A stretch of DNA of 64,000 bases from an uncultured Nitrospiraceae bacterium (GTDB lineage Bacteria > Hydrogenedentota > Hydrogenedentia > Hydrogenedentales > SLHB01), in assembly GCA_964632865.1 (NCBI GenBank), contig CAZWDH010000001.1, forward strand, positions 10,106-74,105, given 5' to 3'. Shown here piece by piece: positions 1 through 58,435 of the stretch (the stretch's first letter is position 1; every line of letters begins with the position of its first letter). The notes under the pieces are model-generated. The model was not told where the DNA came from and searched no databases. It saw only the letters and a program-made list of their open reading frames with translations. The translations under genes were made by a program, and so were the position numbers.

Positions 1-718
1 ACGAAGCCGATTTTTCGGGGTTGTAACCGCGACGATCGTAGAGCTTGGTTGTAGACGGGTCGCGGTGGCCGGCGGCGCGCTGGACGTCCTCAAGGCTGGC
101 CCCGTTGTCGAGGGCGGTGGTGATGAACGTCGCCCGCATGGAGTGGGCGGAGTAGCCGCGGTCAAGGCCGATGCGGCGGGCGTACTTGCGAACAACACGG
201 TCGATGGCGTCGGGGTCCATGTGGCGGCGGCTGTCGCGCTGAATGCCGTTGTTGTGCAGCGGGCGAAACATTGGGCCTTCGAGATCGTCGGCGTTCCCAG
301 CGGCCAGAAGATATTCGCGGATGCGTTGAGCCGCCTGCGGATGAATCGCGAGTGCGTCCTTGCGGTTACCTTTCCTCACGATGCGAAGCGCATCGTAGCC
401 CCGGTTTTGATGGAGGTCTCCAACAATGAGCGCCGCAATCTCGGCCCGGCGGAGTCCGACCTGTAGGCCGACCGAGAGAATCGCCCTGTCCCGTAGGCCT
501 CCGACCGTTTCCGGGTTTGGGGTGTCAAGAAGGGTTTGGGCCTGGGCCTTGGAAAGCGCCAGCGTGGAACCCTCGTCGCGGTTGATGCTCGGTCGTTCCA
601 CGTCGGCCACGGGGTTCCTTTCGACCTCGCCGTGCCGCACAAGGTGCTTGAACAGCGACGAAAGAGCGGCGAGTCGGCGACAAACCGTCGAGGCTTCGGC
701 ACCCTCAGTTTCGCGCAT
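1..718 (-). CDS. Tyrosine recombinase/phage-type integrase. C-terminal catalytic domain is complete to the catalytic Tyr, and the gene's 3' end runs off the left edge of the window. Start assigned to the ATG at 718 preceded by GGAAGG; upstream GTG/TTG starts up to ~955 cannot be excluded.
   Basis: Minus-strand translation gives ...GLRAEIAALIVGDL..GYDALRIVRKGNRKD...HSMRATFITTALDNGASLEDVQRAAGHRDPSTTKLYDRRGY, i.e. the R...HxxR...Y catalytic signature, plus an N-terminal core-binding segment STVCRRLAALSSLFKHLV. It is not in the ORF track because it has no stop inside the window. Confidence 0.85.
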   Translation of the reverse strand, partial: MRETEGAEASTVCRRLAALSSLFKHLVRHGEVERNPVADVERPSINRDEGSTLALSKAQAQTLLDTPNPETVGGLRDRAILSVGLQVGLRRAEIAALIVGDLHQNRGYDALRIVRKGNRKDALAIHPQAAQRIREYLLAAGNADDLEGPMFRPLHNNGIQRDSRRHMDPDAIDRVVRKYARRIGLDRGYSAHSMRATFITTALDNGASLEDVQRAAGHRDPSTTKLYDRRGYNPEKSAS

Positions 719-1028
719 GTAACCTTCCCATGCGATGTCGTCAGCTACGGGAAGGTAGATGAAAGGACCTTGCACGAACGACTTGAGGGCAAAAAGGGGA
801 TTCCGCCGTCGAACATGCCCTATACGCGTGCCAGTGCCGACGTGCGGCTTCCCTGAGCAGCTTGGTGTTGACGATCGGCGATGATCATCGTCGGTGCTGG
901 CGGGAGCGCAAACACGCCTTCGAACGAAAACTGAACTGCCGCCGGTCGCACGCACTTGAACTCTTCTGAAAGACCAACCGGCGGGCAACCCGGCGCAGGG
1001 CGCGCCGGGAATGCCCACCTGCGGAGAG

Positions 1029-2774
1029 TCAGACGGCTTCGGCGAATGCCGATTCCTCCGTCATGACGTCCCCATCGCCAAACTCGGCCACGCTCGGCTC
1101 CGCTTCGGGTTGCAAGTCGTCGTCGATTGGCTCGGCCGACATGGCCGGCGGATCAGGCTCTTCGGGTTCCGCCCAACTCTTCGGTTGCGGTATTGCTCTT
1201 CTGGCCTCCGTAAACAGCGCCAGATAATCCACGCCGAGAATCTGACACATTCTTCTTGCATCCTCGGCCTGGGCCGCGACGGTGTGACCGCCCTGAATGT
1301 TCAGTCGTTTGATCCAGACTTGAGCGACCGCGAGCAATGCGCTTGCGGCCTCTTGGTTCGGTTCCGACTCACGAAGTGAATCGTATTCCTTCCACGCATC
1401 ACCACCGTCCACGTAGTCGGCGCGCTTGGTGCTGCCGAACGCGGTCAACAACGCGACGGAATCGAACATGTCCGCTCCGGCCTCGCGGTTGATTCGCCGC
1501 TGAGTCCAGGGCGAGACGATCTCCAGCGTTTTTTCCAGGGTGAGGTTGCGAAGGAACTCGTGGACGCGCTTGACCACGAACGCATCGCGCCGCTTATGGA
1601 GGCGCGCACGACGCTCGTCTATCGTGAGCGGCACGACGTTGCCATCAACGCCTCGCGGCCGCTGTGAACGGCCATTGCCGTTGGCACTGACCGACTCACC
1701 CATGTCAATGAACACGAGCTTGCCCGCCTTCGGGCCGTCCACTTGCATCACCGGGACGGCGTTGGGCTTTCCAGCCTTGACCAGTTTCGGGGCGTACAGC
1801 CGTTCGATTCGGTCGCCGAATGCCTCTTGAATCCTTGGGCTCAAAGTGTCCACGCCGATCTCGACCAGGCGCAGGTTCGGATGCTGTGCTCGGTGCTTGC
1901 ACTCGCAACGCTGCACGAAGGCGACGTGCTTCCGATCGAAACACGCCGGATCGAGACAACGATCGTCCTTCGGCACCTTGCCGTTCTTGGTCGAGTCGTC
2001 CTCGGGGAAAAGCACCGGCTGCTGCGATGAACGTTTCTGGCAGTTGACGCACGAGCCGGCCTTGGGGTCGATGGTTTCATCCGTCGGGTCCCACGGCATC
2101 GCGGCCAGCGAGCGTAGGCATCCGTCGACGATCTGTCGAAGTTCCTTCACGGTTGGGAAGCCGCGACCGAATATCGGCCAGAAGTGATCGTCGGCCAGCG
2201 AGTCCTGGGTAGCTTCCGGTAGCCGGGCGACCAGTTCAAGGTGTCCGGCCGAGAGACGACTCGCATCCGATTCGGCCTTCAATACCTCAGCGCGCCAAGC
2301 TTTCGACAGCCTGGTCAACGATGCCCGCCGGGCCAAGTAGCCGACGCTCTTCCCGAGCCGCGAGGCGATTGCTTTGAGGTCATACTCGCGGTCAAACGCG
2401 AGTTGAATGGCCTCGGCCTCCTCAAGCGGATGCAGGTCTTTGCGGAGCAAGTTCTCAGCAATCGTCACCGTGAGGGCCTGCTCGTTGTCGAGCTTACGCA
2501 CGACGACAGGCATCTCTGTCAGCCCAGCGAGCTTCGCGGCACGCCAGCGACGCTCCCCGGCACGGATTTCAAAGCGATCCGCTTGAGTCGGGTGCTCTCG
2601 AACGACGATCGGCTGAAGCAGACCGTCGCTCTTGATCGACTGTGCCAGCGGTTTCAGCGACGCATCGCTGAACGGCTTGCGCCGATTATCCGGCGTGGGC
2701 ACGAGTCGGTCGATCGCGACCGTCTCCACTTGTGTTGGGGTAGCAAACTTTGGTTTTGCCTTTACCTTGGGCAT
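1029..2774 (-). CDS. ParB-like nuclease domain (ParB/Srx N-terminal) protein of ~581 aa, with a long C-terminal extension carrying a Cys-cluster (CVNCQK...CLDPACFDRKH...CECKH).
   Basis: LVPTPDNRRKPFSDASLKPLAQSIKSDGLLQPIVVR...FEIRAGERRWRAAKLAGLTEMPVVVRKLDNEQAL is the classic ParB N-terminal box. GGAG lies 10 nt upstream of the ATG at 2774. Confidence 0.8.
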   Translation of the reverse strand: MPKVKAKPKFATPTQVETVAIDRLVPTPDNRRKPFSDASLKPLAQSIKSDGLLQPIVVREHPTQADRFEIRAGERRWRAAKLAGLTEMPVVVRKLDNEQALTVTIAENLLRKDLHPLEEAEAIQLAFDREYDLKAIASRLGKSVGYLARRASLTRLSKAWRAEVLKAESDASRLSAGHLELVARLPEATQDSLADDHFWPIFGRGFPTVKELRQIVDGCLRSLAAMPWDPTDETIDPKAGSCVNCQKRSSQQPVLFPEDDSTKNGKVPKDDRCLDPACFDRKHVAFVQRCECKHRAQHPNLRLVEIGVDTLSPRIQEAFGDRIERLYAPKLVKAGKPNAVPVMQVDGPKAGKLVFIDMGESVSANGNGRSQRPRGVDGNVVPLTIDERRARLHKRRDAFVVKRVHEFLRNLTLEKTLEIVSPWTQRRINREAGADMFDSVALLTAFGSTKRADYVDGGDAWKEYDSLRESEPNQEAASALLAVAQVWIKRLNIQGGHTVAAQAEDARRMCQILGVDYLALFTEARRAIPQPKSWAEPEEPDPPAMSAEPIDDDLQPEAEPSVAEFGDGDVMTEESAFAEAV

Positions 2775-3169
2775 GTTCGTGATCTCCATTGAATAGACCA
2801 CGCCGAATTCGCCAGCGACCGCACGGTCGCATCTTGAGCGACTCGGCGGCTATTGAGCGTTGGATGACGCGCGTCTGAGACGTGGGCGTCCGAATCGGCG
2901 GTGCGTTCTAGAATCTGGGAGCGATTGGCGGCGGAATGCCGCGATGAAAAACCTTCTACGCGTACGACACGGCAGCGCGCGGAATCATGTTTCCACGCGG
3001 TGCCGAGGTTCTTGCGTCTACCCCAGGAAGGAAATTAGGACTTGGATCGGGCTACCTGTTGTTCCAAAGCAACAGAGCCAAATAGATGGCGGCTGCCCAC
3101 TGGGCGGCGTGGGGATCGGCGACGAGGTACGCCGTAACGATGAGAAACAGCGGAACCAGTGCCACCTCT

Positions 3170-3580
3170 TCACCCGCGATCAGCCGAGATGCGGGCTCGA
3201 CGCCGATTGGTGTGCTCGCGGCGATCCACGCGAAGCAATCGCAGTTGCTCGCTCGACCACAAGCGTTCCGTGAAAGCCAATTCGTTTGGTCCCCCCGCCT
3301 GGTGGCTGGAGCGAAACGCACGAACGATCTGCAATACGCCGGTCATGAACTCAGCGGACTGCTCATCCTCCGCATTGGCTGACTCAGACCGAACGGCTTC
3401 GACGAGGTCAAGCAAGAGGTCGAGATTGTCCTCGAAGGCCTCGACGAATTGTGCCCGCTCATCCGGATTCAACATTGCGTTTGGTTCAATCATGAGCCCA
3501 CGCTGCCACAGTTTCGCCCCGGAAGTCAAGTGCCGGATTTCTGATCCAAGGATAGGGAATTTAGCGTTCACACTATTCAA
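3170..3580 (-). CDS. Hypothetical acidic protein. Start (TTG at 3580) and the Arg-rich C-terminal tail are uncertain.
   Basis: The 136-aa ORF has a protein-like first ~100 aa (DERAQFVEAFEDNLDLLLDLVEAVRSE...). The tail is low-complexity and overlaps a small TM ORF (3052..3321). Confidence 0.35.
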   Translation of the reverse strand: MNSVNAKFPILGSEIRHLTSGAKLWQRGLMIEPNAMLNPDERAQFVEAFEDNLDLLLDLVEAVRSESANAEDEQSAEFMTGVLQIVRAFRSSHQAGGPNELAFTERLWSSEQLRLLRVDRREHTNRRRARISADRG

Positions 3581-3667
3581 CGAAAGGGTCGCGCTGGAAT
3601 CGCTAAAACCTATGAGGGGGAGAGGTCCGGTGGTGCATCGAACCTCACGGAAAAACTCCGCAACCTG

Positions 3668-4807
3668 TCAGCCCCCAGCGAGAGCAAGCTGCCGACTACG
3701 GTTTCCGATCCTGCTTTCGTCGCTCGCCAGAGCGAGAAGCCTCCCAGTTTTTTCGTCCGCTTCAGCGCGATCGCCGGCGTGGGCGATCTTGGCCGACAGC
3801 CGGGTGAGCGCATCGACCACGGCGAAGATGGTGAATCGTCCCCGTTGCCGAGCGATCTCCAAGGCCGCCTTGGCCAGGGTCTTGGTGATGCCCTGCTGCT
3901 GCAGCACGGTCATCGCCTCCTCCGCGGTGGGGCCGAGTGTTTCCACACAGGCCTTTTTGATGACCTTGGCGAACGCATCGCGGCGCTGGTCACGCTTCTC
4001 AACGAGATTCGCCACAATCGTTCGAATCTCGCGGAGCGCCTCGTGTACGTTGGCTGTGTGCTTCCGCGAAAAATCAACCACCTCGACCGCGTCCCACACG
4101 ATGTGATTCGCGCACACTGCCTGAAACCAGAACGTCTGGATGCCGACCGAGCGTCGCCCGACCTCCGAATTCCAAACGAAGAATCCGGGAGCGAAAGCCT
4201 CGCCGTTGATCTCCGTCCAGCCGGTCGGGTCGATCATGAAACAGAACATGTCCTGCTCACCGCAGTACAGGCCCGTGCCGTGGGTGGGCTCCGGTTCCGG
4301 GTCCGGTTCAAAGGGCATGTCATCGTCTGACACTGCCGATCGACTGAGACCGGCCCTTTGCGGCGGCTGAAAATCCGTCGCGAACTCGCGCAGCATGGTG
4401 AGCAAGTCCACGTCCCACAGCCTCGAATACGCTACACCGTGAATGGAGCGTATCACGTCCCCTGTGGTCAGAATCTGTACCGGCCGCTCGCTGGTCGGCA
4501 GCGTCTCGTCCAACACGCGGGCCGCCGTCTGCGGCGTGAGTCGGTTGAGCGTGTCCTTGGCCACGCCGGCGAGCCGGCACAGTTGGGCAAACGACCAATC
4601 GTTGAATTGAAATGGTCGATCGCCGCCGAACGCGAGCTTGAGTTCGCCGTCCTCGACGTTTGGCCGCACGCTTTGCGGCGGGTGCCAATGGTCCATGGAC
4701 CGCTCTTTGGTCTTGAAGCAATGGTCCCAAAGCGCGGTCAGCGACGGAAAGCTTTCATCCTTCCCTCGCCGAAACAATTCCTGATTCGCTCTTGTAAGCG
4801 TCTGCAT
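3668..4807 (-). CDS. DUF932-family protein (phage/plasmid-like, TIGR03299-type), typical of ICEs, plasmids and prophages.
   Basis: 379 aa with the conserved core YCGEQDMFCFMIDPTGW...GFFVWNSEVGRRSVGIQTFWFQAVCANHIVWDAVEV. A strong RBS AAGGAGG lies 9 nt upstream of the ATG at 4807. Confidence 0.7.
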   Translation of the reverse strand: MQTLTRANQELFRRGKDESFPSLTALWDHCFKTKERSMDHWHPPQSVRPNVEDGELKLAFGGDRPFQFNDWSFAQLCRLAGVAKDTLNRLTPQTAARVLDETLPTSERPVQILTTGDVIRSIHGVAYSRLWDVDLLTMLREFATDFQPPQRAGLSRSAVSDDDMPFEPDPEPEPTHGTGLYCGEQDMFCFMIDPTGWTEINGEAFAPGFFVWNSEVGRRSVGIQTFWFQAVCANHIVWDAVEVVDFSRKHTANVHEALREIRTIVANLVEKRDQRRDAFAKVIKKACVETLGPTAEEAMTVLQQQGITKTLAKAALEIARQRGRFTIFAVVDALTRLSAKIAHAGDRAEADEKTGRLLALASDESRIGNRSRQLALAGG

Positions 4808-5031
4808 GACAACAACCTCCTTTCGGCGCCGCCTCAAAAAGCGACGCCCTGATTTGCCTTATGCACCACCGGTCCTCTCGACGCCGTGCGGAAATCCGCG
4901 AGGCATCGAAAACCGGCGACGTGTTTCTCTACCCGGATGAGGTTGTCGAAAAAAGCCGCGCCGTTGGTTGTAACCTAAGCGGGCGCGTTGGAGAGGTGGC
5001 GTCATGCGTTAGTGTCCAACCTCTCGGCGGA

Positions 5032-5274
5032 TCAGGCCTTGTCCTGGAGACGTTCGTGAATCCAAGTATGGGCCATGTCCGCAACCTTGGCGACAAGGGG
5101 CAGATCGTCGCGACCAAAGGAGTCGGACTGCTTCCACTCCTCACCATCTTTGTAGATACGGCGGACCTGCACGTTGTGCCGAAAACCGCCGCCCTCAATC
5201 TCGTTGCCCCAAATCACGGCCTTGATTCGGCCCAGCCGGATCTCGTGGGCGGGTTTGTCTTTTCCGTTTGCCAT
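5032..5274 (-). CDS. Small conserved hypothetical protein (80 aa) of a family commonly seen next to ParB-like/DUF932 genes in integrative elements.
   Basis: MANGKDKPAHEIRLGRIKAVIWGNE...FRHNVQVRRIYKDGEEWKQSDSFGRDDLPLVAKVADMAHTWI. RBS GAGAGGAAA upstream. Family recognised from memory only. Confidence 0.55.
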   Translation of the reverse strand: MANGKDKPAHEIRLGRIKAVIWGNEIEGGGFRHNVQVRRIYKDGEEWKQSDSFGRDDLPLVAKVADMAHTWIHERLQDKA

Positions 5275-5774
5275 CTTCGTTTTCCTCTCTCGGCGTTGTC
5301 GCCGAACATGTTGCGCTGGCGGCTCGTCGGCAATCGGTCAAGATTGCTGCGGCGTGCTGCCATTTTCCCAACAATGCGGCCAGACCGGGGCCTCCACCCA
5401 TGCGGGCGGACGGCGCCCGGCCCGGCACGCGGTCCCTCTCGTGATTTCCTTTCGCGTTAAAACTCGAAACAACCGTGGGCTGCATGACGCCCCCTCGCAA
5501 ACAACTGCTCAAAGTTTGCGAGAACGCGTATTCCGCGGGCGGGAGCGACCTGAACGTGATGTCGGACAGATGAAAAAGAACAACGTGCACCTGGACCGTA
5601 GCGTACTTCGGCGCAATTCGTCAACGATGCCACGATCTGGCGTGCGGGTCAGCTGAGATGCCGAGTGTCCTCAATCGGGTGTGATGAAGTCGTTTCGTGA
5701 TTGCTTTGCCTCCGACGGCTTGACCGCGTTCCACGCGCATTGGCAGCGTACAGTTGCCGGGGCCAAAGTGCGCG

Positions 5775-6158
5775 CTAATCTTCGAGCCGGCAGCCTTGGT
5801 CGGTAAGCCATGAACGAAGTGCGGTCTCGACGATGGCCTGTTGAGAGAAGGGTTCGACGTAATCCAGCGAGCGTTTGATGGATTCGTGGCGAAGAGCATC
5901 GGCCACCGAAGCTCGAAGCCGAAGCGTGACCGATCGCAACGGCTCAGGTCGTCGAACCGAAGCGACGGTTCGGCTATTCTTAGTAGTCTTCCGCGGACCC
6001 GACGGGACGTTTGGTCGTGGCTGTTCCGAGTCGAGAGGAAGTTCCAAGGATTCGTCCATCGCCTCAGTCGGCATGTTTCCGGGCCCCTCGGCAACCGTCA
6101 AGAATGCTCGTTGCGCACGGGTCAGCGTCTCACTGAGCGAGCGTCGTGTCGTGTTCAT
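5775..6158 (-). CDS. Putative ribbon-helix-helix centromere-binding partner of ParA (ParG/ParB-analogue). It overlaps the parA stop by 29 nt.
   Basis: It lies immediately downstream of parA on the same strand. Its C-terminal segment VTLRLRASVADALRHESIKRSLDYVEPFSQQAIVETAL has a beta-strand/helix/helix pattern. Confidence 0.4.
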   Translation of the reverse strand: MNTTRRSLSETLTRAQRAFLTVAEGPGNMPTEAMDESLELPLDSEQPRPNVPSGPRKTTKNSRTVASVRRPEPLRSVTLRLRASVADALRHESIKRSLDYVEPFSQQAIVETALRSWLTDQGCRLED

Positions 6159-6804
6159 AGCCGCAAATCTCCTCCAGCAAAGTGCTCATCTCGCCCGCCG
6201 CGTCTCTCGCTCGTCGTCCCATTCGCCATACCACGCTTCGCTGTCCCGGCGAATCCGCAATCGCCTCGCGCAGGCGCAGCACGGACCGACACAAGGGAAC
6301 GCCCAGGGCGGTCGCCGCGTGTCGCGACTCGCGCGTGAGCACAAAGCGTTCGCTGCGAAGTCGGTTCAGCAACAATCGTCCGGCGGGTAACCGCCCGGAT
6401 CGAACCAATTGAGCGCTTCGCAGGATGCGAAAACTCTGTGCCGCGGCCTCCAGTTCGGGCAGCGTCGCGCCGCAAGGCACGATCGCCATGTCAGCCACGA
6501 GCAACAGCGCCCGTGTAGCCTCGGCCAGGTTCGCGGGGCCGTCCCCGATGATGACCTCGTGCGTGTCGCGGAGTCGAGCGTATTGTTCAACAATCGCGTC
6601 GGCGTTGGCTTCGGTCACGACCGTGATCGCCGGTTCCGCGCTCTGCACCCATCGCGTGGAAGCGGCTTGGCCGTCGGCGTCGATAAGCGCTACCCGCGAT
6701 CCGCGTTCGTGAAACCACACCGCCAAGTGAACGGCCAACGTGGTCTTGCCGACTCCTCCCTTCTGGTTGACGACGGTGATGAACATGGTTCGAGCATGTC
6801 GCAA
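6130..6804 (-). CDS. parA: ParA/MinD-family partition ATPase.
   Basis: Deviant Walker A VVNQKGGVGKTTLAVHLA plus ALIDADGQAAST. The likely start is the internal Met at 6786. Confidence 0.9.
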   Translation of the reverse strand: MRHARTMFITVVNQKGGVGKTTLAVHLAVWFHERGSRVALIDADGQAASTRWVQSAEPAITVVTEANADAIVEQYARLRDTHEVIIGDGPANLAEATRALLLVADMAIVPCGATLPELEAAAQSFRILRSAQLVRSGRLPAGRLLLNRLRSERFVLTRESRHAATALGVPLCRSVLRLREAIADSPGQRSVVWRMGRRARDAAGEMSTLLEEICGYEHDTTLAQ

Positions 6805-7260
6805 GGCGGACCATCGCGCAAGGGGGCATTCGTGCGTGTCCGTTGGGTCTCAGGCGTTGCCGCACCGATGCTTGCCTGCGTGCTTGCATGCAAGCTGGCA
6901 AAGCGAATTCCATGTGATGCCGGCATGGTGGGAATCGAATTACTCGAATCCTGTTGCGCCATTCGGTGAATCGGATATGTTGGCCGAGAAAGGGTTCGCC
7001 GCGTTCCGCTCCGACAGCGATTGGCATTCCTGAGGAGCGGAACGGGGAAATTGGGAAGCGAAACACGAAGCGGACGATGCAGCGCTACAGACCCAAGCCT
7101 CGGGAGGCAACAGGCCCATTGTGCGTCGGACGTCACGACTTCGGCGTCGTTGGGGAACATCCTAGCACGTTGACGTGCGCTGTCAACTATCAAGTGACAG
7201 ACAATGGCACCTACGCGCTTATGGATCGCGTTCGACTCCCGATGAACCGAGTGGCTGTTT

Positions 7261-8898
7261 GTGGCTCGTGCAATCTTCGGGAGGCTTATGAATGCAAATC
7301 CAAGTGTTCCGGCATCGGCGCCGCGCGTCGTTACCAAACCCACGGGCGGGTTTCGCCCGATCACGGTGTTGCAAGTCTGCATGGCCTGGTGGGCCTATCG
7401 CACCGGCCTTCTGCCGCGGTATCTGGACTTCCGAGTCTACCTCGCGCTTCACGAAGTGGCCGAACGCAGGCTCGCCGCCTCGCGCATTCGCAAACGCAAG
7501 GGGCGAGGCGGCTTGATTCTCGTCCCAACACGCGGGGAACTGTTGAAGGAGCTGCGTGGCATGGTCGGGGGGACAAGCGATCGGCTGGTGCGCGGTGCGT
7601 TATCTCGATTGGAGTCCGTCGGGCTGGTGACGCTGACAAGTTCGCCTCCCATCTTCGCGACCGGCCCCGAGTCGCTGGCGAACGCGCCTGTTGAACTGGT
7701 CCAATTCCTAAACGGGCTCTCCCGAAAACCGGGCATGCGCGAACGTCGCCTGCCGGTCCCACGCCCGATGCTTCGCCTATTGGCCGTTTCGGCGACACCG
7801 TCGCTAGCGGCCACGGTTCTCGGATACCTGATGCTAAGCGTTTGGTGGCGGGGGAGCGAGTTGCACGTTCGCGGTGGCTGCACAACTGCATTCATTTCCG
7901 AGCGATTCGGCGTGGATGCGCGAAGCGTCAAGCGGGCGAGATCAGAACTCCGGCGAATCGGCTGGCTGGTTCCAGCGGATCCCAGTCGTTCGGCTGTGGC
8001 GGGCGCGATTCCAAATCTGCTGTGGACGAATGTACCAGAAAAGTGCCGCTCGCGGCCCCGCACAGTTTTGTCACCCCCTGTCGTCAATCGAGGCATCGGG
8101 ATGTCACCCCATACCATATCTATTCAACTCCCTTCGGGATCCAAGAACCAGCAACCTGCTGCCCGCCGTCAGCTGGCTGGGATTCCGAGGGGAAAGGAAG
8201 GAGGATCCCGACCGAGATTGTCGAATGTTCGACCCGCGGACCTGTCAAGCGTTGAGCGGATGGACGTGCTGTTCGAGGACGCCGTGTCGTCCGGCGTTGT
8301 GCAACGAACTTCCGCCGATCGCCTGCGGTTCTTCGCGGCTGCGGCTCGCGCCTCGCGGCTCGGGTCGCGTAATCCGTGCGGGTTCTTCGCGGCCGTTGTC
8401 CGTCGCGGACTCTGGCACGTAATCAGCCAGGCCGACGAAGATCGAGCGATCGAGCGGCTCAGAGCGCACCGAGCGACACCTCTCAGTCCACACGTCGCAC
8501 CCAGCCAACGGTCCGCCTCCACCCCGAACCCGATGCCGCATGGCCACCACCCCCCGACCAGCGCTGCGGAAGTCGAAGCGCTCGTCGTGTCGCTGGCCGT
8601 CCACTGTTCGATGGAAAAAGGCCCTCAAGTCGGTCGGAAATGGCAACATGACCAGTCTCCCGCTTGTGCGCCTGCGGCCCGGGTCCCGATCGGCCCTCGC
8701 TCGAAAAGACCGAGCGCAGCGAGCGGGCGAGGGGCGAGCGGGTGGGACGCAGCGCGCGCCTGCGGACGGTCTCCCGGAGGTTGGAGCTTAGACGACGGCG
8801 TTAGGCTTATAAGCGATGATCTCGTTGAAGGAGACCTCCGCTTGGGGCGGCGGCGTGAAACGTTCGCCTTGAGCGAGCTGGTGCGCCTAGTAGTGTGA
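7261..8898 (+). CDS. Putative replication-initiator-like winged-helix DNA-binding protein. The C-terminal half is Pro/Arg/Ala-rich low complexity, so a frameshift or over-extension is possible.
   Basis: Two wHTH-like segments (LILVPTRGELLKELRGMVGGTSDRLVRGALSRLESVGLV and TAFISERFGVDARSVKRARSELRRIGWLV). It is divergent from parA across a palindrome-rich intergenic region. Confidence 0.4.
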   Translation: MARAIFGRLMNANPSVPASAPRVVTKPTGGFRPITVLQVCMAWWAYRTGLLPRYLDFRVYLALHEVAERRLAASRIRKRKGRGGLILVPTRGELLKELRGMVGGTSDRLVRGALSRLESVGLVTLTSSPPIFATGPESLANAPVELVQFLNGLSRKPGMRERRLPVPRPMLRLLAVSATPSLAATVLGYLMLSVWWRGSELHVRGGCTTAFISERFGVDARSVKRARSELRRIGWLVPADPSRSAVAGAIPNLLWTNVPEKCRSRPRTVLSPPVVNRGIGMSPHTISIQLPSGSKNQQPAARRQLAGIPRGKEGGSRPRLSNVRPADLSSVERMDVLFEDAVSSGVVQRTSADRLRFFAAAARASRLGSRNPCGFFAAVVRRGLWHVISQADEDRAIERLRAHRATPLSPHVAPSQRSASTPNPMPHGHHPPTSAAEVEALVVSLAVHCSMEKGPQVGRKWQHDQSPACAPAARVPIGPRSKRPSAASGRGASGWDAARACGRSPGGWSLDDGVRLISDDLVEGDLRLGRRRETFALSELVRLVV

Positions 8899-8911
8899 TT
8901 GGAAACGGGCG

Positions 8912-9241
8912 GTGACGGTGGATGGCATTGATCAGACCGGTACGGTTGAGGGCCGGGAGACAGGAGGCCAGCGAATGGACGGTTTACGTTGGATGAGCGT
9001 GGAACAGATTCACAAGCAGCAGCGCATGCGCCGGGAGCGGGTGATTGAGGCGATGCTTAGCGGTGAGCTTCCCTACGAACAACGGGGCCGGATTCGCTAC
9101 GCGCGTACATGTGATGTGGAGGCCTGGGGAAGATCGCCTGTCGGTGTCGTGGCGTGGCTGCAATCCGAAAGTTCCAAAGAGGCAGTTGGTAAGCTCTCGT
9201 CAAGCCAGCACGCCGGTAAACGAAAAGGTTTTCGCAGCTGA
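8912..9241 (+). CDS. Excisionase/AlpA-like HTH DNA-binding protein.
   Basis: MSVEQIHKQQRMRRERVIEAMLSGELPYEQRGRIRYARTCDVEAW matches the excisionase-family HTH (…PAYKLGRRWRIRREDLEAWL type). The true start is probably the Met at 8975 or 8993. Confidence 0.6.
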   Translation: MTVDGIDQTGTVEGRETGGQRMDGLRWMSVEQIHKQQRMRRERVIEAMLSGELPYEQRGRIRYARTCDVEAWGRSPVGVVAWLQSESSKEAVGKLSSSQHAGKRKGFRS

Positions 9242-9620
9242 AACACCGCGCGGCATTCCTCCGCTCTGAGAGTGACGGAGGAGCCGGGCGGGCTAAATGA
9301 GATGCCGTCTAAAAAGCATTGGCCAAGGTATGCTTGACCGGAGAACGAACATCGATGGAGGCGGGGGGAATCGAAATCGTTGGGCAAATCATGGAAAAAC
9401 CGCTTTTTTCAACCATTAGGAAATGCGAGTTTGCCGAGGAATACGCGAAAAGTCGACCTGACCACTCGCGACCAATTTGACTCTTCAGCCCCATCAAAAA
9501 TCGCTTTTTGCGTGTACCTATCGTGTACTCACGTCACGCCAAATACCCCGGGCACTTTCGCCCCATGCGGATTTACAGTGCACCGCCCAATGCCGGAAAC
9601 GGATCGGCATTTCTTCATCG

Positions 9621-12473
9621 TCATCGTGTCGCAGCTTGCTCGCCCATCGTGCGTCGAATCCACTTGTCTAGCTCGCGCAGCCACAGCACCGAGCTGGCGA
9701 CTGCCGTGCATAGCAGCCAATCGCCCGGATGCAAGCTCACGGTCGAGAAGGCGCTCTGCAAGAAGGGCGCGTAAATCACGGCTACATGCAGCGCAAGCGA
9801 AAGGCCGATCGCGGCCCACACCCAGTTATTCCGAAAGAGCCCCTGGAACGCACTGTGCTCATCCGAGCGAGCGTTTAAGACGTTGAAGAGCTGGAACATC
9901 ATTAGCGTGGTGAACGCCATGGTCTGCGCGAAACGCATGTCGCCCGAACCCGTGATGAAGCCTCCGGGCAGACAGGCGTCAAGCACCACCAGCGTGCCGG
10001 CCGCCATGATCGCCCCGACGAAGAAGATGCCAAACCACATGCGGCGCGTGAGAACGCCTTCGTCTCGCGAGCGCGGCACGCGGCTCATCACGTCTGCGTC
10101 TGCCGGGTCGACGCCCAAGGCCATCGCAGGCGCGCCGTCCGTCACGAGGTTGATCCAGAGGATCTGTGTCGCCAGTAGCGGCAGGAGCATGGGATTTTCC
10201 CCCGCAAGGGCGTCTTCCTCGCCACTTAAGCCGATCACCCTCGCCAACAGCACGCCCAGGAACATGGTCATGACCTCGCCGATGTTCGACGACAGCAGGT
10301 AGCGCAGGAACTTGCGGATGTTGGCGAAGATGGCCCGGCCTTCTTCGACAGCGGCCACGATAGTCGCAAAGTTATCGTCGGTCAGTACCACGTCCGCCGC
10401 CTGCTTGGACACGTCAGTCCCCATGATACCCATCGCTATGCCGATGTCGGCGGCCTTGAGCGATGGCGCATCGTTGACGCCGTCGCCGGTCATGGCCACC
10501 GTCGCACCTCCGCGCTGCAGTGCTTTGACGAGGCGTAGCTTATGTCGCGGATCGACGCGTGCGTACACAGAGGTGTTCTCGACCGTTTGAGCAAGCGCTT
10601 CGTTCGACATATTCTCCAACTCGGCGCCGGTGACGGTCCGTCCGTCCGTGGCGATTCCCAGTTCGGCGGCGATGACGGCGGCGGTTCTTGGATGATCGCC
10701 GGTAATCATGATCGGACGAATGCCGGCGTTTTTAGCCCGCGCCACCGCCTGCTTCGCTTCCTCGCGCGGCGGATCCATCATGCCGATCAGGCCCAAAAAA
10801 ACGAGTCCTTGCTCCAGGTGTTCACCCACCTCGACGTGTTGCAGCGCACCCGCCGGCACAGACCGCGACGCGACGCCCAGTGTGCGCAACGCCTCGCCGG
10901 CGAGTTGTTCATTCACCTGCAGGATCTCAGCGCGGCGCTCCTCGCTTAAAGTTCGCGCCCCATCACCCACCCGCTCCTGCGAACATCGCGCTACCAGCAC
11001 GTCCGGCGCCCCCTTTGTGAAAACCCGAAGGTGCTCGCGCTGATCGGAGTCCGTATGAACCGTCGACATCAGCTTGCGGTCGGATGAGAACGGAACTTCG
11101 CCCACCCGCATAAAGCGTCGGTCGAGGGTTTCTTCCTCCAGCCCCGCCTTGCGGGCAGCGACCACCAGCGCCCCCTCGGTCGGGTCGCCTTGCACCGTCC
11201 AGCCGCCATCTTGTTCATGCAGCACGGCATTGTTGGCCCGGTCCGCCACGGTTAGTGCCCTCCTTAACTCTGCGCGGAGCGTTCCTTCGATCGGCCCGCC
11301 GCCCTCCACATGCACCTCCCCTTCAGGCGCATAGCCCGTGCCGCTGAAATCCACGCGCCCGCTTGCCGTGACCACGGTGCGCACCGTCATTTCGTTTTTC
11401 GTCAGCGTGCCGGTTTTGTCGGCAGCGATGACATTCGCTGAGCCCAGCGTTTCGACCGCTGCGAGGTGTCGCACGATGGCGTTGCGCCTCGCCATGCGCT
11501 GCACGCCAAGTGCGAGCACCGCCGTCACTACTGTCGGCAGGCCTTCAGGCACCGCCGCCACCGCCAGCGCTACCCCCACGAGAAGTACGTCGAACAGAGC
11601 CGTGAAGCCGCGCACCTTTTCGACGAGCACAATCGTGGCGATCATCGCCACGGCGATGATGACGACGATCAGCCCCAGCCGTTTGCCGAGCCGGTCGAGT
11701 TCGCGTTGCAGCGGTGTGGTTTCGACGCCGGATTCTTCCAGCATTCCGGCGATGCGTCCCATCTCGGTTTGCATCCCGGTCGCCGTGACGACGGCTTTGC
11801 CGCGGCCGTACGTAACTGCGGTTCCGCTGAAGACCATGTTCTCCCGGTCGCCGAGCGATGCTCCTCCCGTCACCGGATCGGTGTCCTTCGACACCGGCAG
11901 GCTCTCGCCGGTCAGGGCCGCTTCCGCGGTTTGCAAAGCCGTGGAAAGAACCAGGCGCGCATCGGCGGGGATAGCGTCGCCTTCCTCGATGAGAATCAGG
12001 TCGCCGGGCACGACATCCGCCGCGGCAACTTCACATCGCTCGCCGTCGCGCACGACGTTCGCGCTGGCCGCCGACATCCTGCGGAGCGCTGCAACCGCCG
12101 ATTCGGCCCGCGACTCCTGGACATAACCCATGACCGCGTTGAGCAGCACGATGGCGAAGATGACCATCGCATCATATGGCAACGCCGCTTCCCGCTTGAC
12201 CACCCAGAGTCCCGCCGAGATAGCGGTGGCGACCAACAGCAAAACGACGAGTATGTTCCGGAATTGCGCGAGGAACCGCCGCCACGCCGACACGGACTCC
12301 TTGGCCGTTAGCTCGTTGCGGCCGTGACGGGCAAGCCTTTGGGCGGCTTCGGCGCCGCTCAGCCCTGAGCGGGCGTCCGTGCCGAGGGCTCGGATGACGT
12401 CTTGTGCCGACGCTGTGTGCGGTGTGAGATCTCGACTTTCCGAACTGATGGCTTTTTTCTGGTTGGTTTCCAT
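9621..12473 (-). CDS. P-type ATPase, type IIA (SERCA-like Ca2+/cation-transporting).
   Basis: [64 protein letters not shown]; 950 aa with 10 TM segments. Confidence 0.9.
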
Positions 12474-13300: not shown

Positions 13301-14377
13301 TTATGACGATTCGAACGTGATCAACGGCTTAATCATTCCGCCTTCCTTGTTCTGCATCATGCGAAAGGCGGTCTCAATCTGCGAGAATTTGAACCGATGC
13401 GTTGTGAGCGGGAGCGGGTTCACGCGACCGGACTCGATCAGCCGCATGAGCCGATACATGCGTTCCGCGCCGCCAGGGCACAGACCGGTGCGGATGGTTT
13501 TGTCGCTCATGCCGACTCCCCAGGCCAGACGTGGAATGGGCACGGTGTCCCCGTCGCCATGATAGCCGGCGTTGGATATCGTCCCGCCAGGCCGGGTGAC
13601 CTTCACGCACGACTCGAAAGTGACACGCCCACCGTAGGCTTCAATGGCCGAATCCACCCCCTGCCCATCGGTTAGTTTCAAGATCGCTTCGACCGGATCC
13701 TGGTCATTGAAGTCGATCACCCTGTCGCATCCGAAGTGTTTGCCGGCCGCAAGCCGGTTCGGCATCCCGTCCACGCCTATAACTAGACCCGCGCCGCAAA
13801 GCCGCGCACCCTGGGCGGCCATAAGCCCGATCGGGCCGAGCGCAAAGACGGCCACGCTGCCACCCATCGGAATGTTCGCGTGCTCCGCGGCCATGAAGCC
13901 GGTGGAGAGCATGTCGGCGCAATAAACCGCCTGCTCATCGGTGAGGCCGTCCGGAATCTTTGCCAGATTCGCGACGGCGTTATTCACGTGGAAGTATTCG
14001 GCCATATTCCCATCTTTCGTGTTTGCAAACTTCCACCCACCGAGCATCTGCGTACATTGCGACGTCCAACCGCGCTGGCAGTTCTCACAATGAAAGCATG
14101 GCGTAATGGCGCCGACCAGCACGCGGTCGCCTTGCTTGAAGCCGCTTACCGCGCTGCCGAGTTGTGATACGACGCCTACCGCTTCGTGGCCCAGCGTCAA
14201 GTTCTTGCGGGGGCCAATAGCACCAGCGACCGTGTGGATGTCGGACGTGCAGATCAGGGCCGCGGTGGTCCGGACGACCGCGTCGTTCGGTCCGGGTTCA
14301 GGGATCGGCTTCCGCGTGACCTGTACGCGCCCAATCTCGTGCATGACGAAAGCGTCCATAGTTTCTGACATCCGCAA
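13301..14377 (-). CDS. Zn-dependent medium-chain alcohol dehydrogenase of the NADP-dependent secondary-ADH type. The probable start is ATG 14371 or 14359.
   Basis: PGPNDAVVRTTAALICTSDIHTV...LGHEAVGVV...GDRVLVGAITPCFHCENCQRG resembles the Thermoanaerobacter secondary ADH. Confidence 0.88.
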   Translation of the reverse strand: MRMSETMDAFVMHEIGRVQVTRKPIPEPGPNDAVVRTTAALICTSDIHTVAGAIGPRKNLTLGHEAVGVVSQLGSAVSGFKQGDRVLVGAITPCFHCENCQRGWTSQCTQMLGGWKFANTKDGNMAEYFHVNNAVANLAKIPDGLTDEQAVYCADMLSTGFMAAEHANIPMGGSVAVFALGPIGLMAAQGARLCGAGLVIGVDGMPNRLAAGKHFGCDRVIDFNDQDPVEAILKLTDGQGVDSAIEAYGGRVTFESCVKVTRPGGTISNAGYHGDGDTVPIPRLAWGVGMSDKTIRTGLCPGGAERMYRLMRLIESGRVNPLPLTTHRFKFSQIETAFRMMQNKEGGMIKPLITFESS

Positions 14378-38743: not shown

Positions 38744-39054
38744 ACCGCCTCGTACGCTGCGCCCGGTAAGTTCGGCCCCGCTGGCTGGGGATCTGAACGG
38801 GCGAATCGGAGGGGCGACGGCGAATGCAGAGCGCGCTGGCGATTGGTCAAGGGACGAACGCCGTTTGGCGGCCCTCATGGCTGCATGCCTATCTGTCGCG
38901 ACTCACTTGCAGATGGACATTACATTATTGTTTACAATCGTCAGTGCTGCTCGCGAAAAAATAGCGCGCGTCCCTGACCGAATACCTGGATGACAGCGAT
39001 TTCGCAGCTCGTTAGGCACGCGAATTGCATGTCGATCGGTGAGAGGTTAAACCC

Positions 39055-39780
39055 ATGTCCAAGCAACTTGTGTGGGACGCTCCGACACGGATGTTTCACT
39101 GGCTATTTGCGGGAGGATTTGCCGTAGCGGCAGTCATCGCGCTTCTGTTCGACGACAGCAGCCCCGTTTTCCCCTACCACGCGATCATCGGATTAGCGAT
39201 CACGCTGATGGTATGTTTGCGGGTAGTATGGGGACTTGTCGGCTCCCGTTACGCCCGGTTCTCGACATTCGCGTTCGGGCCGGCCGCGGTTGCCCGGTAC
39301 ATCAAGGGCGCGTTGTTTGGCATCGCCCGGACGTACATCGGCCACAACCCCGGCTCGGCGTACGCGGTCTTCGCCATGCTAGTGCTGATGATCAGCCTGG
39401 CGGTAACAGGGATCATGATGGGTCGGGGGAACGAGAACGTGAAGGAGCTTCATGAGGTTCTCGCGTACGGGATGATCGGTGTAGTTATCGCGCATATTCT
39501 TGGCGTGGTCTTCCACACGATCCGGCATCGTGAAAACATCATCGCAAGCATGATCCACGGGAAAAAGGATTGCGAGCCGGCCGAGGGCATCCGGTCGTCG
39601 CACCAGGTGCTCGGAGCCGTATTCCTGGCCGTGGTCGGGGCCTGGACCATCGGCTTGGTCAGGAACTTTGACCCGATGACTGGGACTGCTAGGCTGCCCG
39701 TTCTTGGGACTTCGCTTCAGGTCGGCGAGGCGGAGAATGACGCCGACGCCTTGGACCACGAACATGATGACGGCGATTGA
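39055..39780 (+). CDS. Cytochrome b561 family (Ni/Fe-hydrogenase b-type cytochrome-like) membrane protein.
   Basis: RMFHWLFAGGF..., HNPGSAYAVFAMLVL, four TM helices with conserved His. Confidence 0.8.
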   Translation: MSKQLVWDAPTRMFHWLFAGGFAVAAVIALLFDDSSPVFPYHAIIGLAITLMVCLRVVWGLVGSRYARFSTFAFGPAAVARYIKGALFGIARTYIGHNPGSAYAVFAMLVLMISLAVTGIMMGRGNENVKELHEVLAYGMIGVVIAHILGVVFHTIRHRENIIASMIHGKKDCEPAEGIRSSHQVLGAVFLAVVGAWTIGLVRNFDPMTGTARLPVLGTSLQVGEAENDADALDHEHDDGD

Positions 39781-45434: not shown

Positions 45435-45860
45435 TCACGGCCCAGTCAGCCGCGCGCCCAGTTCTTGAATCTCACGTCCACCGATCACACCGTCATTCTC
45501 CCAATCCGCCCGGCCACAGGCCGGTTCCAATTCCCCGCCGGACAAGCCGAAGCAGTTCTGAAACGCAGCCACGTCGGTAAGGTCCTTGTCCCCGTCGTCG
45601 TCGAAGTCGGCGAAGAGGTCGGGAAACGCGTAGATACGCCGGTCGAAGTCTCCGGCGACAATTCCATCAGCCTCGACGAAATCCTCTGACTGAATGAACG
45701 CCGCCGGATCGAGAGGAGAGAAACCATCGCGGAAGTGGACTTCCAGCCGCCCGCCGAGCGTGGTCTGTCCGGTCACATGCAGCACGTCGAACTCGCCGGG
45801 GTTCTGTCCGGCATATTCCATGATCAAGGCGCCGCCGGGGAGTATCTCCAAATCTCCGTC
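45435..45860. repeat. Conserved 3' block of the paralog family (copy 1 of 3; the others are ~48335-48760 and ~51204-51630).
   Basis: Long stretches are near-identical at nucleotide level, e.g. ccggttccaattc(c/t)ccgccggaca(a/g)gccgaagcagttctgaaacgc.gccacgtcgg, between 45515 and 51290. Confidence 0.8.
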
Positions 45861-48287: not shown

Positions 48288-48334
48288 AAACCTCTCCCCT
48301 CTCTCGGGCGTGTCGCCTTTATGAACACGGCGGC

Positions 48335-51157: not shown

Positions 51158-51203
51158 ACATTTCTCCTCGCTCCCGGACATGCCGCGCTATCCATTCGAC
51201 GGC

Positions 51204-56437: not shown

Positions 56438-58435
56438 ATGTCCACGGCGACTCCGTTCTTCCGACGGCATGCAGCTGCACTGGTGGCGACCGTGCTGGTT
56501 GCGAGCTGTTACGCATTCACCCGCCTTCCCGCACCGTCTGCTGCGGAGCGAGCCGCGCTGGCAGTTCGATTCCGGTTCACGCGGTCGGCGCTCCCTGAGT
56601 TGATCACGTCGTCGCAGAAATCCGTTCGGACGGTTCATCCAAGTTTGACCCGGATATCCTCATGGATATCCGCAACCGGCGCCGCTGCCGCTCTTGAAGA
56701 CCTCGATGGGGATGGACTTCCCAACGACCTATCCTGGGTCGATCCACGAGTCGACGAGGTAATCATTACGCCGGTTCCGGAAACCGGTCAGCGCTTCCAG
56801 CCATTCGTTTTGAACCCGGCTCCTCTTCCCTATGACCCGGGCACGATGGCGCCGATGGGCAGCATGACCGCGGATCTAAACGAAGATGGCCTCATGGACA
56901 TTCTTGCATATTACTGGGGGCGCACTCCGGTTGCGTTCTTGAGAAAGGGAGTTTCTCCCGAGATCGCAGGAGCGGCGACCTCAGGGGGTCTGTCGGCAAC
57001 GGCGTTCGTTCCATGTGAAGTCGCCTCTAGCATTCAGCGTTGGTACACCAGCAGTGCCACCCTCGCCGACCTCGATGGCGATGGACATGTCGATATCGTG
57101 ATCGGCAACTACTTCCAGGACGGCGCTCGCATTCTCGATGCAAAAGCCTCCGGGGTCGAAATGATGCACGATACCAAGTCGAAGTCCTTTAATGGCGGCT
57201 GGAACAGGTTACTGCTTTGGAAGGCAGCAACGGCGGGCGGAGCACCCAGCGTGCAGTTTACCGACGTGGAGGACGTATTGGACGAGGATGTCGCTCGTGC
57301 ATGGACGCTCGCCGTCGGCGCGGCCGATATCGATGGCGACCTGCTCCCGGAAATCTACTTTGCTAATGATTTCGGTCCCGATCGTCTCCTCCACAATCGT
57401 TCGACCCCCGGCAGCCTTCGTTTTGGCGTACTGGAGGGAAAAGGCACGCTCGGCACTCCAGCTTCATTCGTCTTAGGTCATGACTCGTTCAAGGGTATGG
57501 GAGTGGATTTTGGAGATGTAAACGGGGATGGGTTCCTCGATATTTATGTAAGCAACATCGCCAGGGAGTTCGGATTGCAGGAAAGTCACTTCTTGTGGCT
57601 GTGTACGGGCGAGTTTGACAAGATGAAAGATGGCGCCGCGCCCTACGTGCAGGCAAGCGAATCCCTGGGGTTGTCCCGGAGTGGATGGGGATGGGAATCG
57701 CGACTAGCGGACTTCGATAATGATGGGACCTTGGAAGCGATTCAGGCCGTGGGCTTCATCAAGGGCCAGAACAATCGCTGGGCTGCATTGCAGTCGCTGG
57801 TTACGGCCAATGATCAAATGATGCACAATCCCAAGCTTTGGCCCCGGTTTCAACCGGGCGACGATCTCAGCGGTTACGATCCCAACGCCTTCTTTGTTCG
57901 GGCCAGCGACGGGCGCTACGTCGATGTCGCAAGTGAAATCGATCTTGACCAACCGATGGTAAGTCGCGGCATCGCCGTCGCCGACGTGGACGCAGATGGT
58001 GACCTGGACTTCGCACTCGCCAACCAATGGGAACAATCCTATTTCTATCGCAATGATAGCCCCCAGCAGAACGCGTTTCTTGCAATGCGGCTTTTGCTGC
58101 CGCTCGGAAGCCAAAAGCTCCCTGCTGTGACCGTTTACCGGGGGCGTCGCGGACCTGACTTGGAGGGACGCGCGGCTATCGGCGCCGTAGCGACGGTGCA
58201 CCTTCCCGACGGCCGACGCCTTGTCGGTCATGTTGACGGCGGAAACGGACATTCAGGCAAGCGAAGCCAAGATTTGCATTTTGGGCTCGGTCAACTGGCA
58301 GATGAGGCAGAGCTTCAAGTGGATCTGCGCTGGCGTGACGCTGACGGTCGCGATCACCGTGAAACGGTGCACGTGAAGCCCGGATGGCAGACCATTCAAC
58401 TCGGATGTCAGCACAGCGGAGGAGAAACATCATGA
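56438..58435 (+). CDS. FG-GAP/VCBS-repeat protein with a C-terminal ASPIC/UnbV domain (CRTAC1-like).
   Basis: Repeated DLDGDGxxD Ca-binding loops (ADLDGDGHVDIV, ADIDGDLLPE, DVNGDGFLDIY, DVDADGDLDF). C-terminal GNGHSGKRSQDLHFGLG. Confidence 0.8.
   Translation: MSTATPFFRRHAAALVATVLVASCYAFTRLPAPSAAERAALAVRFRFTRSALPELITSSQKSVRTVHPSLTRISSWISATGAAAALEDLDGDGLPNDLSWVDPRVDEVIITPVPETGQRFQPFVLNPAPLPYDPGTMAPMGSMTADLNEDGLMDILAYYWGRTPVAFLRKGVSPEIAGAATSGGLSATAFVPCEVASSIQRWYTSSATLADLDGDGHVDIVIGNYFQDGARILDAKASGVEMMHDTKSKSFNGGWNRLLLWKAATAGGAPSVQFTDVEDVLDEDVARAWTLAVGAADIDGDLLPEIYFANDFGPDRLLHNRSTPGSLRFGVLEGKGTLGTPASFVLGHDSFKGMGVDFGDVNGDGFLDIYVSNIAREFGLQESHFLWLCTGEFDKMKDGAAPYVQASESLGLSRSGWGWESRLADFDNDGTLEAIQAVGFIKGQNNRWAALQSLVTANDQMMHNPKLWPRFQPGDDLSGYDPNAFFVRASDGRYVDVASEIDLDQPMVSRGIAVADVDADGDLDFALANQWEQSYFYRNDSPQQNAFLAMRLLLPLGSQKLPAVTVYRGRRGPDLEGRAAIGAVATVHLPDGRRLVGHVDGGNGHSGKRSQDLHFGLGQLADEAELQVDLRWRDADGRDHRETVHVKPGWQTIQLGCQHSGGETS

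Follow-up and report, generated by a model that had tools for sequence, protein, structure and literature searches.

The first 9.3 kb or so of a 64-kb stretch of DNA (contig CAZWDH010000001.1 of GenBank assembly GCA_964632865.1, positions 10,106 to 74,105; the whole stretch is called the window below) carry the genes of a real mobile-element backbone. Window positions 1 to about 9300 are interpreted here as the right-hand part of a plasmid-derived integrative element in a planctomycete replicon, and this copy of the element as decayed and probably immobilised. A probability of roughly 0.6 is given to this interpretation. The copy can most likely neither excise nor transfer, because its integrase is truncated and it has no relaxase and no coupling protein, one kind or the other of which is carried by relatives. 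A first-pass annotation of the sequence had proposed a plasmid-like mobile backbone, and this is borne out: numerous Planctomycetota genomes contain this gene set beside unrelated flanks, and the pair formed by the genes RepL and ParA is found on the circular plasmid pPla86_1. In this genome the element appears to be integrated rather than plasmid-borne. This kind of system is already known, as integrated plasmids and loci with a relaxase and a type IV coupling protein (T4CP) have been noted in the phylum, and the finding itself is an ordinary, probably dead mobile-element remnant. The element family, RepL and the sites associated with the DUF932 gene do not appear in the literature searched.

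The window has a G+C content of about 62% and contains many spurious open reading frames (ORFs), so homology, together with the gene calls of sister contigs, was used to fix the genes. The genes had been described as nine co-linear genes. They are instead seven minus-strand and two plus-strand genes, which diverge at 6787-7260. The minus strand encodes the integrase, a long ParB, an acidic protein, the DUF932 protein, an 80-aa protein (Small80), a 127-aa protein labelled ribbon-helix-helix (RHH)-like, and ParA. The plus strand encodes a 545-aa Rep-like protein with two winged helices (RepL) and a small Xis-like ORF. Apart from the integrase, the backbone genes are intact, with lengths equal to those in relatives. 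Related loci are cited by number (L021 and so on), and the features that make up the backbone are as follows.

2..735, minus strand: tyrosine recombinase (XerD-like), 5'-truncated; PF00589 at 68 bits; its final 5 codons and stop are beyond the left edge of the window
736..1028, no strand: deletion scar or empty cargo slot between parB and int; DNA matches to L021
1029..2774, minus strand: long ParB-family protein, 581 aa; ParB_N 2.2e-26, HTH_ParB 4.6e-5
3170..3493, minus strand: small acidic protein, 107 aa, isoelectric point (pI) 4.9; no family match
3668..4807, minus strand: DUF932 protein, 379 aa; PF06067 at 26.3 bits against a cut-off of 23; phrog_1362 3e-16
5032..5274, minus strand: Small80, 80-aa conserved protein; identical protein on 10 contigs from several samples
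5775..6158, minus strand: putative centromere-binding partner of ParA, 127 aa; overlaps the parA stop
6130..6786, minus strand: ParA, 218 aa, type Ib-like partition ATPase; CbiA 3e-17, AAA_31 1e-16
6787..7260, no strand: divergent control region between parA and RepL; conserved blocks in L096, L098 and L180
7261..8898, plus strand: RepL, 545 aa; winged-helix domains at about aa 30-125 and 163-250, helical domain at aa 325-405

The identification of the first gene as a tyrosine integrase holds for its catalytic domain, but the gene is 5'-truncated and lies inside the element rather than at its edge. Pfam matched only the tail of the SAM-like N-terminal domain. The product (P0001) has 244 residues as compared with about 328 in full-length relatives at 89-93% identity, and the alignment begins at residue 79 of P0002 (a 328-aa relative). 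Judged against these relatives, the gene has lost its first 78 codons and its promoter. The recombinase keeps its catalytic domain but lacks the 78 N-terminal residues and the upstream region, and it is probably inactive. The deletion can be followed in the DNA itself. Window positions 702-737 correspond to L021 19032-19067, and positions 735-857 correspond to L021 18183-18305 at 90%. Because these flanking matches lie apart in L021, about 0.73 kb is missing from the window; the lost stretch comprised the 78 int codons, the sequence upstream of them and the greater part of a small divergent gene. Between parB and int, L021 has a slot of 4.2 kb, which in L092 contains a 3.4-kb OLD/UvrD (Gabija-like) pair. 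In the window this slot has shrunk to about 130 bp.

The element also extends beyond the left end of the window. L091, a 4.3-kb contig of the same sample, has an overlap with the window and adds 2.83 kb leftwards, and beyond the int stop it encodes an HNH protein, a 96-aa ORF and a type II methyltransferase (PADLOC MTase_II, 2e-122). The corresponding position after int is occupied in L092 and L093-L095 by type I restriction-modification and other defence genes, and homology between L091 and L092 ceases exactly at the int stop codon. The integrase is flanked by two cargo slots and is therefore not the element's end. Thus, the 9.3 kb do not form a compact whole element, since the integrase is internal and cargo continues leftwards. 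The two slots flanking int behave as defence-gene hotspots, and PADLOC made no defence assignment for the backbone genes. The cargo in the slots varies: an OLD-family ATPase with a UvrD helicase (L092 6878-9563), HATPase_c_3 with Metallophos (L098 1-3603), type I restriction-modification with SLFN/AlbA_2 and others (L092-L095, downstream of int) and the type II methyltransferase with HNH (L091 1623-4244).

Transfer genes had been reported as absent from the 9 kb, and their absence extends further. No homologues of the T4CP-like ATPase, TrwC, TrwB, the pPla86 MOBP relaxase or TraG were found by tblastn in the whole 64-kb window. In addition, none of the nine ORFs had a Pfam match to a relaxase, coupling or secretion family, and the genes expected of an integrative conjugative element (ICE) were thus not found among them. 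No homologue of ThiF was found in the window or in L091. In relatives the situation is different. The closest (L021, L011, L017, L038, L040 and L182) have a block with a T4CP-like ATPase upstream of Small80, where DUF2958 (outside the stretch compared for L038 and L040) and two winged-helix-like proteins without a family match are also located. The ATPase is about 1000 aa in length, has matches to TrwB_AAD_bind and TraG-D_C, and is found in 19 loci. It is membrane-anchored and is preceded by two paralogues of about 220-250 aa without a Pfam match (for example, L017 2392-6864); with no canonical relaxase nearby, the ATPase and the two paralogues are a possible non-canonical transfer module. L083 and L039 carry a TrwC relaxase, a TrwB-type T4CP and a MobC-like gene, and other members carry a strawberry-notch methylase-helicase. 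The window variant, like L012, L022, L098 and L180, has RepL and ParA with its partner where others hold the T4CP block.

These comparisons bear on a second explanation, that the window contains one end of a larger integrative conjugative or mobilisable element that still works, with its relaxase and coupling genes beyond the restriction-modification cargo, to the left. The element demonstrably continues in that direction, TrwC, TrwB and MobC are located 3-10 kb downstream of DUF932 in L083, and the backbone gene c19 follows the cargo after int in L012, L057 and L092. However, the T4CP lies between ParA/RepL and Small80/DUF932 in L021, L011, L017 and L182, and between DUF932 and int in L057, and both of these positions are empty here. 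Also, the loss of the int promoter and 78 codons makes excision unlikely whatever lies to the left. For these reasons a larger functional element is considered improbable. The gene c19 encodes a conserved 231-aa protein without a Pfam match (L012 13985-14620, L057 19846-20643, L092 19802-20479, L070 4534-5160 and L065 14571-15383), and in L012, L057 and L092 it is the next backbone gene past int and its cargo. It is beside RepL in other loci, which hints at a circular gene order of the element, and it was not found in the window or L091.

The reading of the window as an integrative element rests largely on the distribution of its family. With DUF932 as the query, 205 relatives were found in representative genome contigs, nearly all of them in metagenome-assembled genomes (MAGs) of Planctomycetota and often several per genome. 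The backbone was compared by clustering the ORFs of about 90 related loci, using approximately 20 kb per locus. The family, present in at least 205 genome contigs, is modular: Small80 and DUF932 are present almost everywhere, and the long ParB, integrase, RepL and ParA are present in subsets. The same module is found in different genomic contexts, and some genomes hold several copies. For example, the gene beyond RepL is a P-type ATPase in the window, Laminin_B/FG-GAP in L182, a response regulator in L012, and helix-turn-helix (HTH), nucleotidyltransferase (NTase), extracytoplasmic function (ECF) sigma and kinase genes in L096. Several RepL-bearing relatives are located in contigs of 1.6-5.5 Mb (L057, L065 and L090), and the case for chromosomal integration of the family rests mainly on them.

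A preprint reports integrated plasmids in Planctomycetes, and also chromosomal loci that have a MOBF relaxase and a T4CP without a mating-pair system (bioRxiv 10.1101/2024.01.22.576637). The family described here resembles those integrative mobilisable elements (IMEs) and integrated plasmids in combining a tyrosine recombinase with replication and partition genes and variable cargo, and it is likewise found at different chromosomal sites. Its members have a relaxase and/or a coupling protein, with no mating-pair apparatus in the approximately 20 kb compared per locus. The window copy differs in that it has neither relaxase nor T4CP, its integrase is truncated and internal, and its attachment (att) sites were not identified. 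Little has been documented about horizontal transfer in Planctomycetota, and no demonstration of conjugation exists for the phylum. The window offers a decayed but well-resolved copy from a family of elements that planctomycete genomes contain in abundance; the family mixes plasmid replication and partition genes, leading-region-type genes and two defence-collecting slots beside the integrase.

An element of this layout might have worked as three modules. First, RepL, divergent from a small ParA with a ParG-like partner across a conserved control region, would form a replication and partition module, which in an excised circle would give autonomous maintenance. Secondly, the 80-aa protein, DUF932, the acidic protein and the long CTPase-type ParB may represent "establishment" genes like those of plasmid leading regions. 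Third, the XerD-like tyrosine recombinase would have a cargo slot on each side. In this copy the slot between parB and int was presumably emptied by a deletion, which also took away the promoter of int and, with its first 78 codons, most of the core-binding domain. A type II restriction-modification-like pair fills the other slot, past int and left of the window. The copy would then persist as a fossil, its remaining genes intact.

The replication and partition module has a relative on a plasmid. RepL is a real 545-aa protein, as the earlier description of a winged-helix Rep-like protein implied, with 39 homologues that cover up to 98% of its length. Its conserved core ends near 8450. On the sister contig an automatic gene caller had chosen ORFs on the opposite strand instead. 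The AlphaFold2 (AF2) model has a mean predicted local distance difference test (pLDDT) score of 80 and consists of two winged-helix domains and a helical C-terminal domain. The Rep part of the description fared less well, in that RepL had no sequence or fold match to a characterised initiator. A Foldseek search of the PDB returned only local matches to winged-helix regulators at E>0.1. Of the 39 family members, not one had a Pfam match above threshold or hit RPA (PF10134) or Rep_3, and weak GntR/HTH_36 matches recurred among them. RepL is nevertheless a putative replication initiator. Its two-winged-helix architecture and its place beside parA on a real plasmid resemble those of Rep proteins; this resemblance is distinct from evidence of membership in an initiator family. 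The plasmid is pPla86_1, 45 kb and circular, on which a homologue with 28% identity is divergent from parA.

The resemblance to pPla86_1 and pPla133 (CP036297.1 and CP036288.1, 45-kb circular plasmids of cultured Planctomycetes) includes RepL divergent from parA, Small80, DUF2958 and a tyrosine recombinase. Identity to pPla86_1 is only 28-36%, and that plasmid has a MOBP relaxase, MobC, TraG and ThiF; DUF932 and the long ParB were not detected there with the window proteins as queries. Most planctomycete plasmids have a Rep of the RPA family (PF10134) (bioRxiv 10.1101/2024.01.22.576637), to which the RepL of the window does not belong. In pPla86_1 the ten largest unannotated proteins, the only ones scanned, included no RPA-type Rep. 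The RepL family is unannotated and could serve as a replicon for genetic tools in Planctomycetota.

The label ParA was upheld by the Pfam matches to CbiA and AAA_31, and the NCBIfam model ParA_partition gave 131 bits, below its cut-off of 180. The pairing of ParA with the 127-aa partner is kept in L012, L022, L098, L180 and L182. To judge from its sequence, the partner itself appears ParG-like: the N-terminus looks disordered and the C-terminus has the pattern strand-helix-helix. There was no RHH match for it in Pfam (even at E<=10), NCBIfam, PHROGs or the PDB sequences, so the RHH label given earlier now rests on its position and a reading of its sequence. Type Ib partition systems consist of a small ParA/ParF and an RHH centromere-binding protein of the ParG type, as in TP228. 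The window resembles them in its 218-aa Walker-type ParA, the overlapping gene for a small basic protein and a nearby array of short tetramers, which is a candidate centromere. It differs in that its partner has no detectable ParG/RHH similarity. The divergent control region contains about nine NTGC tetramers (6867-6901), a 10-bp hairpin (7003-7012/7034-7043) and two short palindromes (7166-7210). Its blocks are conserved across four loci although overall identity is 66-69%, and they are candidates for a centromere, an operator or an origin.

To the right of RepL two further features are located.

8975..9241, plus strand: small basic ORF, 88 aa (109 aa from a GTG at 8912); "Xis/AlpA-like" in the first-pass annotation; singleton cluster
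9242..9620, no strand: lowest-GC intergenic stretch, between the convergent Xis-like ORF and P-type ATPase gene

Homology of the backbone on the RepL side ends at 8415-8450 in comparisons with L012, L022, L180 and L182, and at 8798 in comparisons with L096 and L098. On this evidence the right limit of the element is placed between 8450 and 9620. The small ORF is outside the backbone homology. It had no match to HTH_17 or any other Pfam family at E<=10 and none in NCBIfam, PHROG or PDB, so the AlpA/Xis label is now a matter of position and of reading the sequence. Its single homologue (52%) adjoins the MobC-TrwC operon in L083. The stretch at 9242-9620 has no similarity to any related locus compared. 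Positions 9290-9520 had been singled out as the only AT-rich stretch and a candidate attachment site. Positions 9301-9500 do have the lowest G+C content (48.5%), but 38901-39100 and 57421-57620 are at 50%. As an attachment site the stretch found no support, since there is no tRNA, there is no repeat of at least 12 nt to the left extension, and the backbone homology ends earlier (8450-8798).

Several observations, in addition to the lack of an initiator match for RepL, weigh against the element being a decayed, integrated one. First, a tRNA scan found none in the window and one unrelated tRNA-Gly (L065) in 24 loci. Secondly, no direct repeats of at least 12 nt linked 8789-9625 to the 2.83-kb left extension; in L012 and L022, comparison of the RepL side with the far side likewise gave no convincing repeat. 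Third, a search for an empty site by way of the neighbouring P-type ATPase in JGI metagenomes gave best relatives that were at most 75% identical with no shared synteny. Because no tRNA, direct repeat or usable empty site was found, the element ends are not defined. Fourth, the G+C content is equal in the element and its surroundings. Fifth, the rest of the window encodes alcohol and glutamate dehydrogenases, a sigma-54 two-component pair, a Na/H exchanger, copper/metal ATPases, qNor and ScdA, and none of the ten large window ORFs scanned was a clear housekeeping marker. With accessory-type genes, no housekeeping marker and no tRNA, the 87-kb source contig could itself be a plasmid. Lastly, some activity might remain in the 244-aa recombinase, whose catalytic domain is intact and which has an ATG start.

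Much of this evidence is shared by a rival explanation in which nothing is integrated. The genes would then be the backbone of a plasmid of at least 87 kb, the metal-resistance, nitric oxide-detoxification and regulatory genes its cargo, and the recombinase a decayed gene for multimer resolution or integration. The arrangement of RepL and ParA is the same as on circular pPla86_1, no tRNA was found in the window and no clear housekeeping gene among the ten large ORFs scanned, there is no G+C change across the 9.3 kb, and att repeats were not found. This explanation is nonetheless considered unlikely, while deserving serious attention, for three reasons. Relatives with the same RepL module are found in chromosomal contigs of 1.6-5.5 Mb. 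Backbone homology stops less than 1 kb from RepL in several loci with unrelated flanks, as expected at an insertion boundary. The T4CP module is inside the element in relatives and is missing here, which suggests a decayed copy.

The remaining genes of the element are those between the integrase and ParA. The long ParB had been described as a ParB-like protein with a Cys-rich part, and both parts of this description hold. It belongs to the ParB/Spo0J CTPase family, as ParB_N (92 bits) and HTH_ParB (24 bits) are both over their cut-offs, and a PDB sequence search matched Spo0J/ParB/Noc/KorB structures at 1e-25 to 4e-11. Box II (GERRWRA) and Box III (ENLLRKDL) could be read from the sequence, as could a CxxC...CxxxxC stretch. 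This Cys-rich stretch lies past the HTH and is followed by about 300 further residues. An exact-protein look-up returned no record. In architecture only, this ParB resembles two long ParB-like CTP clamps, the leading-region protein YfjB/HerB of the F plasmid (PMC13370423) and BisD of ICEclc (cited there). What they have in common is an N-terminal domain that binds CTP and contains Box II (GERRxRA) and Box III (ENLxRxDL), together with an HTH and a non-canonical, long C-terminus; these proteins are all encoded apart from the element's own ParA partner. The Cys-rich stretch and a sub-threshold match to PRTRC_parB (TIGR03734) are specific to the window ParB. PRTRC_parB was its best NCBIfam match, at 136 bits as compared with a cut-off of 278.6, and there is no ThiF partner in the window; ThiF or ThiF-JAB genes are found in L180 and pPla86_1. 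Thus, the window ParB is not assigned to the PRTRC systems.

The acidic hypothetical protein was recovered as annotated, with 107 aa and a pI of 4.9. In L016, L038, L040 and L047 a small gene (cluster c93) is located between DUF932 and ParB; its resemblance to the acidic protein was noted by eye only, and clustering kept the two apart. The small protein between DUF932 and the ParA side also proved to be a real gene. The cluster of Small80 at 90% has 89 members, homologues occur in 52 loci, and the homologue on pPla86_1 has 34% identity. No family match and no credible PDB match were found for Small80. A PDB sequence match to Legionella AnkB was inspected and judged spurious.

The DUF932 protein is the most conserved marker of the element family, and its annotation was confirmed by the PF06067 score listed above; this match places it within the DUF932 family (PF06067/TIGR03299). 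Its AF2 model (pLDDT 76, predicted template modelling score, pTM, 0.72) is similar to models of phage DUF932/TIGR03299 proteins (E 1e-14, TM 0.65-0.75), and a fold search against the PDB gave no significant neighbour. The phage likeness raises a further explanation, that the 9.3 kb are a remnant of a prophage, phage-plasmid or satellite. The integrase, ParA, ParB and DUF932 all match PHROG families, and the DUF932 fold is common in phage proteomes. This explanation is very improbable all the same: neither the window nor about 90 related loci contained capsid, terminase, tail or lysis genes, and relatives carry T4CP, TrwC, DUF2958 and the strawberry-notch methylase-helicase instead. A megablast search of positions 1-9600 against the plasmid collection (PLSDB) also gave no match, and this search did not extend to the phage collection.

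The DUF932 gene is bracketed by two copies of an inverted motif, and a structured element is located in the 3' part of RepL.

3620..3638, plus strand: downstream copy of the inverted 19-nt motif GAGAGGNCCGGTGGTGCAT, 30 nt past the DUF932 stop
4861..4879, minus strand: upstream copy of the inverted 19-nt motif GAGAGGNCCGGTGGTGCAT, 24-54 nt upstream of two candidate DUF932 starts
8664..8793, plus strand: 129-nt GC-rich structured element in the 3' part of the RepL ORF; sharp-edged conservation of 76-94%

The motif GAGAGGNCCGGTGGTGCAT has exactly two matches in the 64 kb, as compared with 0 expected by chance, and the two copies are mutually inverted. An invariant core, CCGGTGGTGC, inside GAGAG(G)NCCGGTGGTGCA, brackets DUF932 in inverted orientation in 45 related loci, and where Small80 adjoins DUF932 the CCGGTGGTGC bracket encloses the two-gene operon. 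No covariation was found between the two flanking copies outside the core; therefore, sequence-specific recognition is favoured and a long-range stem is unsupported. The motif was absent around the rhizobial DUF932 gene examined. These sites give studies of this domain of unknown function, which conjugative plasmids and phages commonly carry, a definite starting point.

The 129-nt element has one copy in the window and is kept in L096 (2926-3055), in L098 (two copies, 11383-11511 and 13394-13530) and in L019, L034, L035, L043 and L044. In the window, L096 and L098 it sits in the 3' tail of the RepL ORF. It folds as a long imperfect hairpin, two pairs of which show compensatory changes, and the lengths of its indels are not divisible by three; the z-score of the DNA fold is -3.55. 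In L098 two direct copies flank a 469-aa gene, which is absent where one copy remains; in L180 a homologue of this gene is present and the 129-nt element is missing. An Rfam search of window positions 1-10000 gave no match, and a covariance model of the element found no copies beyond the founding ones. A boundary or recombination site of a cassette, an oriT-like or single-strand-origin hairpin, and a small mobile repeat are hypotheses for what it represents.

The motif and the hairpin also occur together. Four Phycisphaerales MAGs (L034, L035, L043 and L044) have in common only a 1.5-kb block (91% identity), the flanks of which are otherwise unrelated. This block, at about 9745-11253 (in L044, 6230-7738), contains DUF932 between the left and right motifs, with about 190 nt ahead of the left motif and the 129-nt element at its end. 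In L043 an element of the IS3 family is located directly after the block. It was considered whether the inverted motifs are the termini of an insertion sequence with DUF932 as its transposase, and this was rejected since the block common to the MAGs runs about 190 nt past each motif. In a bolder reading, a DNA-processing cassette complete in itself, and moving between elements on its own, would be made up of DUF932, the inverted CCGGTGGTGC sites and the 129-nt hairpin; it might be, for example, a new origin-of-transfer and nickase unit or a site-specific recombination cassette. Such a cassette might mobilise elements without a canonical relaxase. It is suggested by the invariant core in 45 diverged loci, the 1.5-kb block in four MAGs and the paired hairpins of L098, and is regarded as a speculative and doubtful proposal. 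The sites and the hairpin may more simply be an operator plus a terminator, or reflect modular homologous exchange.

Two minor observations concern other parts of the window. Positions 45435-54158 contain three adjacent minus-strand ORFs of 948-984 aa, of which the one scanned, 45435-48287, has no Pfam match at 1e-5. Also, the sister contig L001 is identical to the window over 8.1 kb and has 23 mismatches in the last 100 nt (10324-10422, in the P-type ATPase gene), which suggests strain heterogeneity or an artefact of the assembly end.

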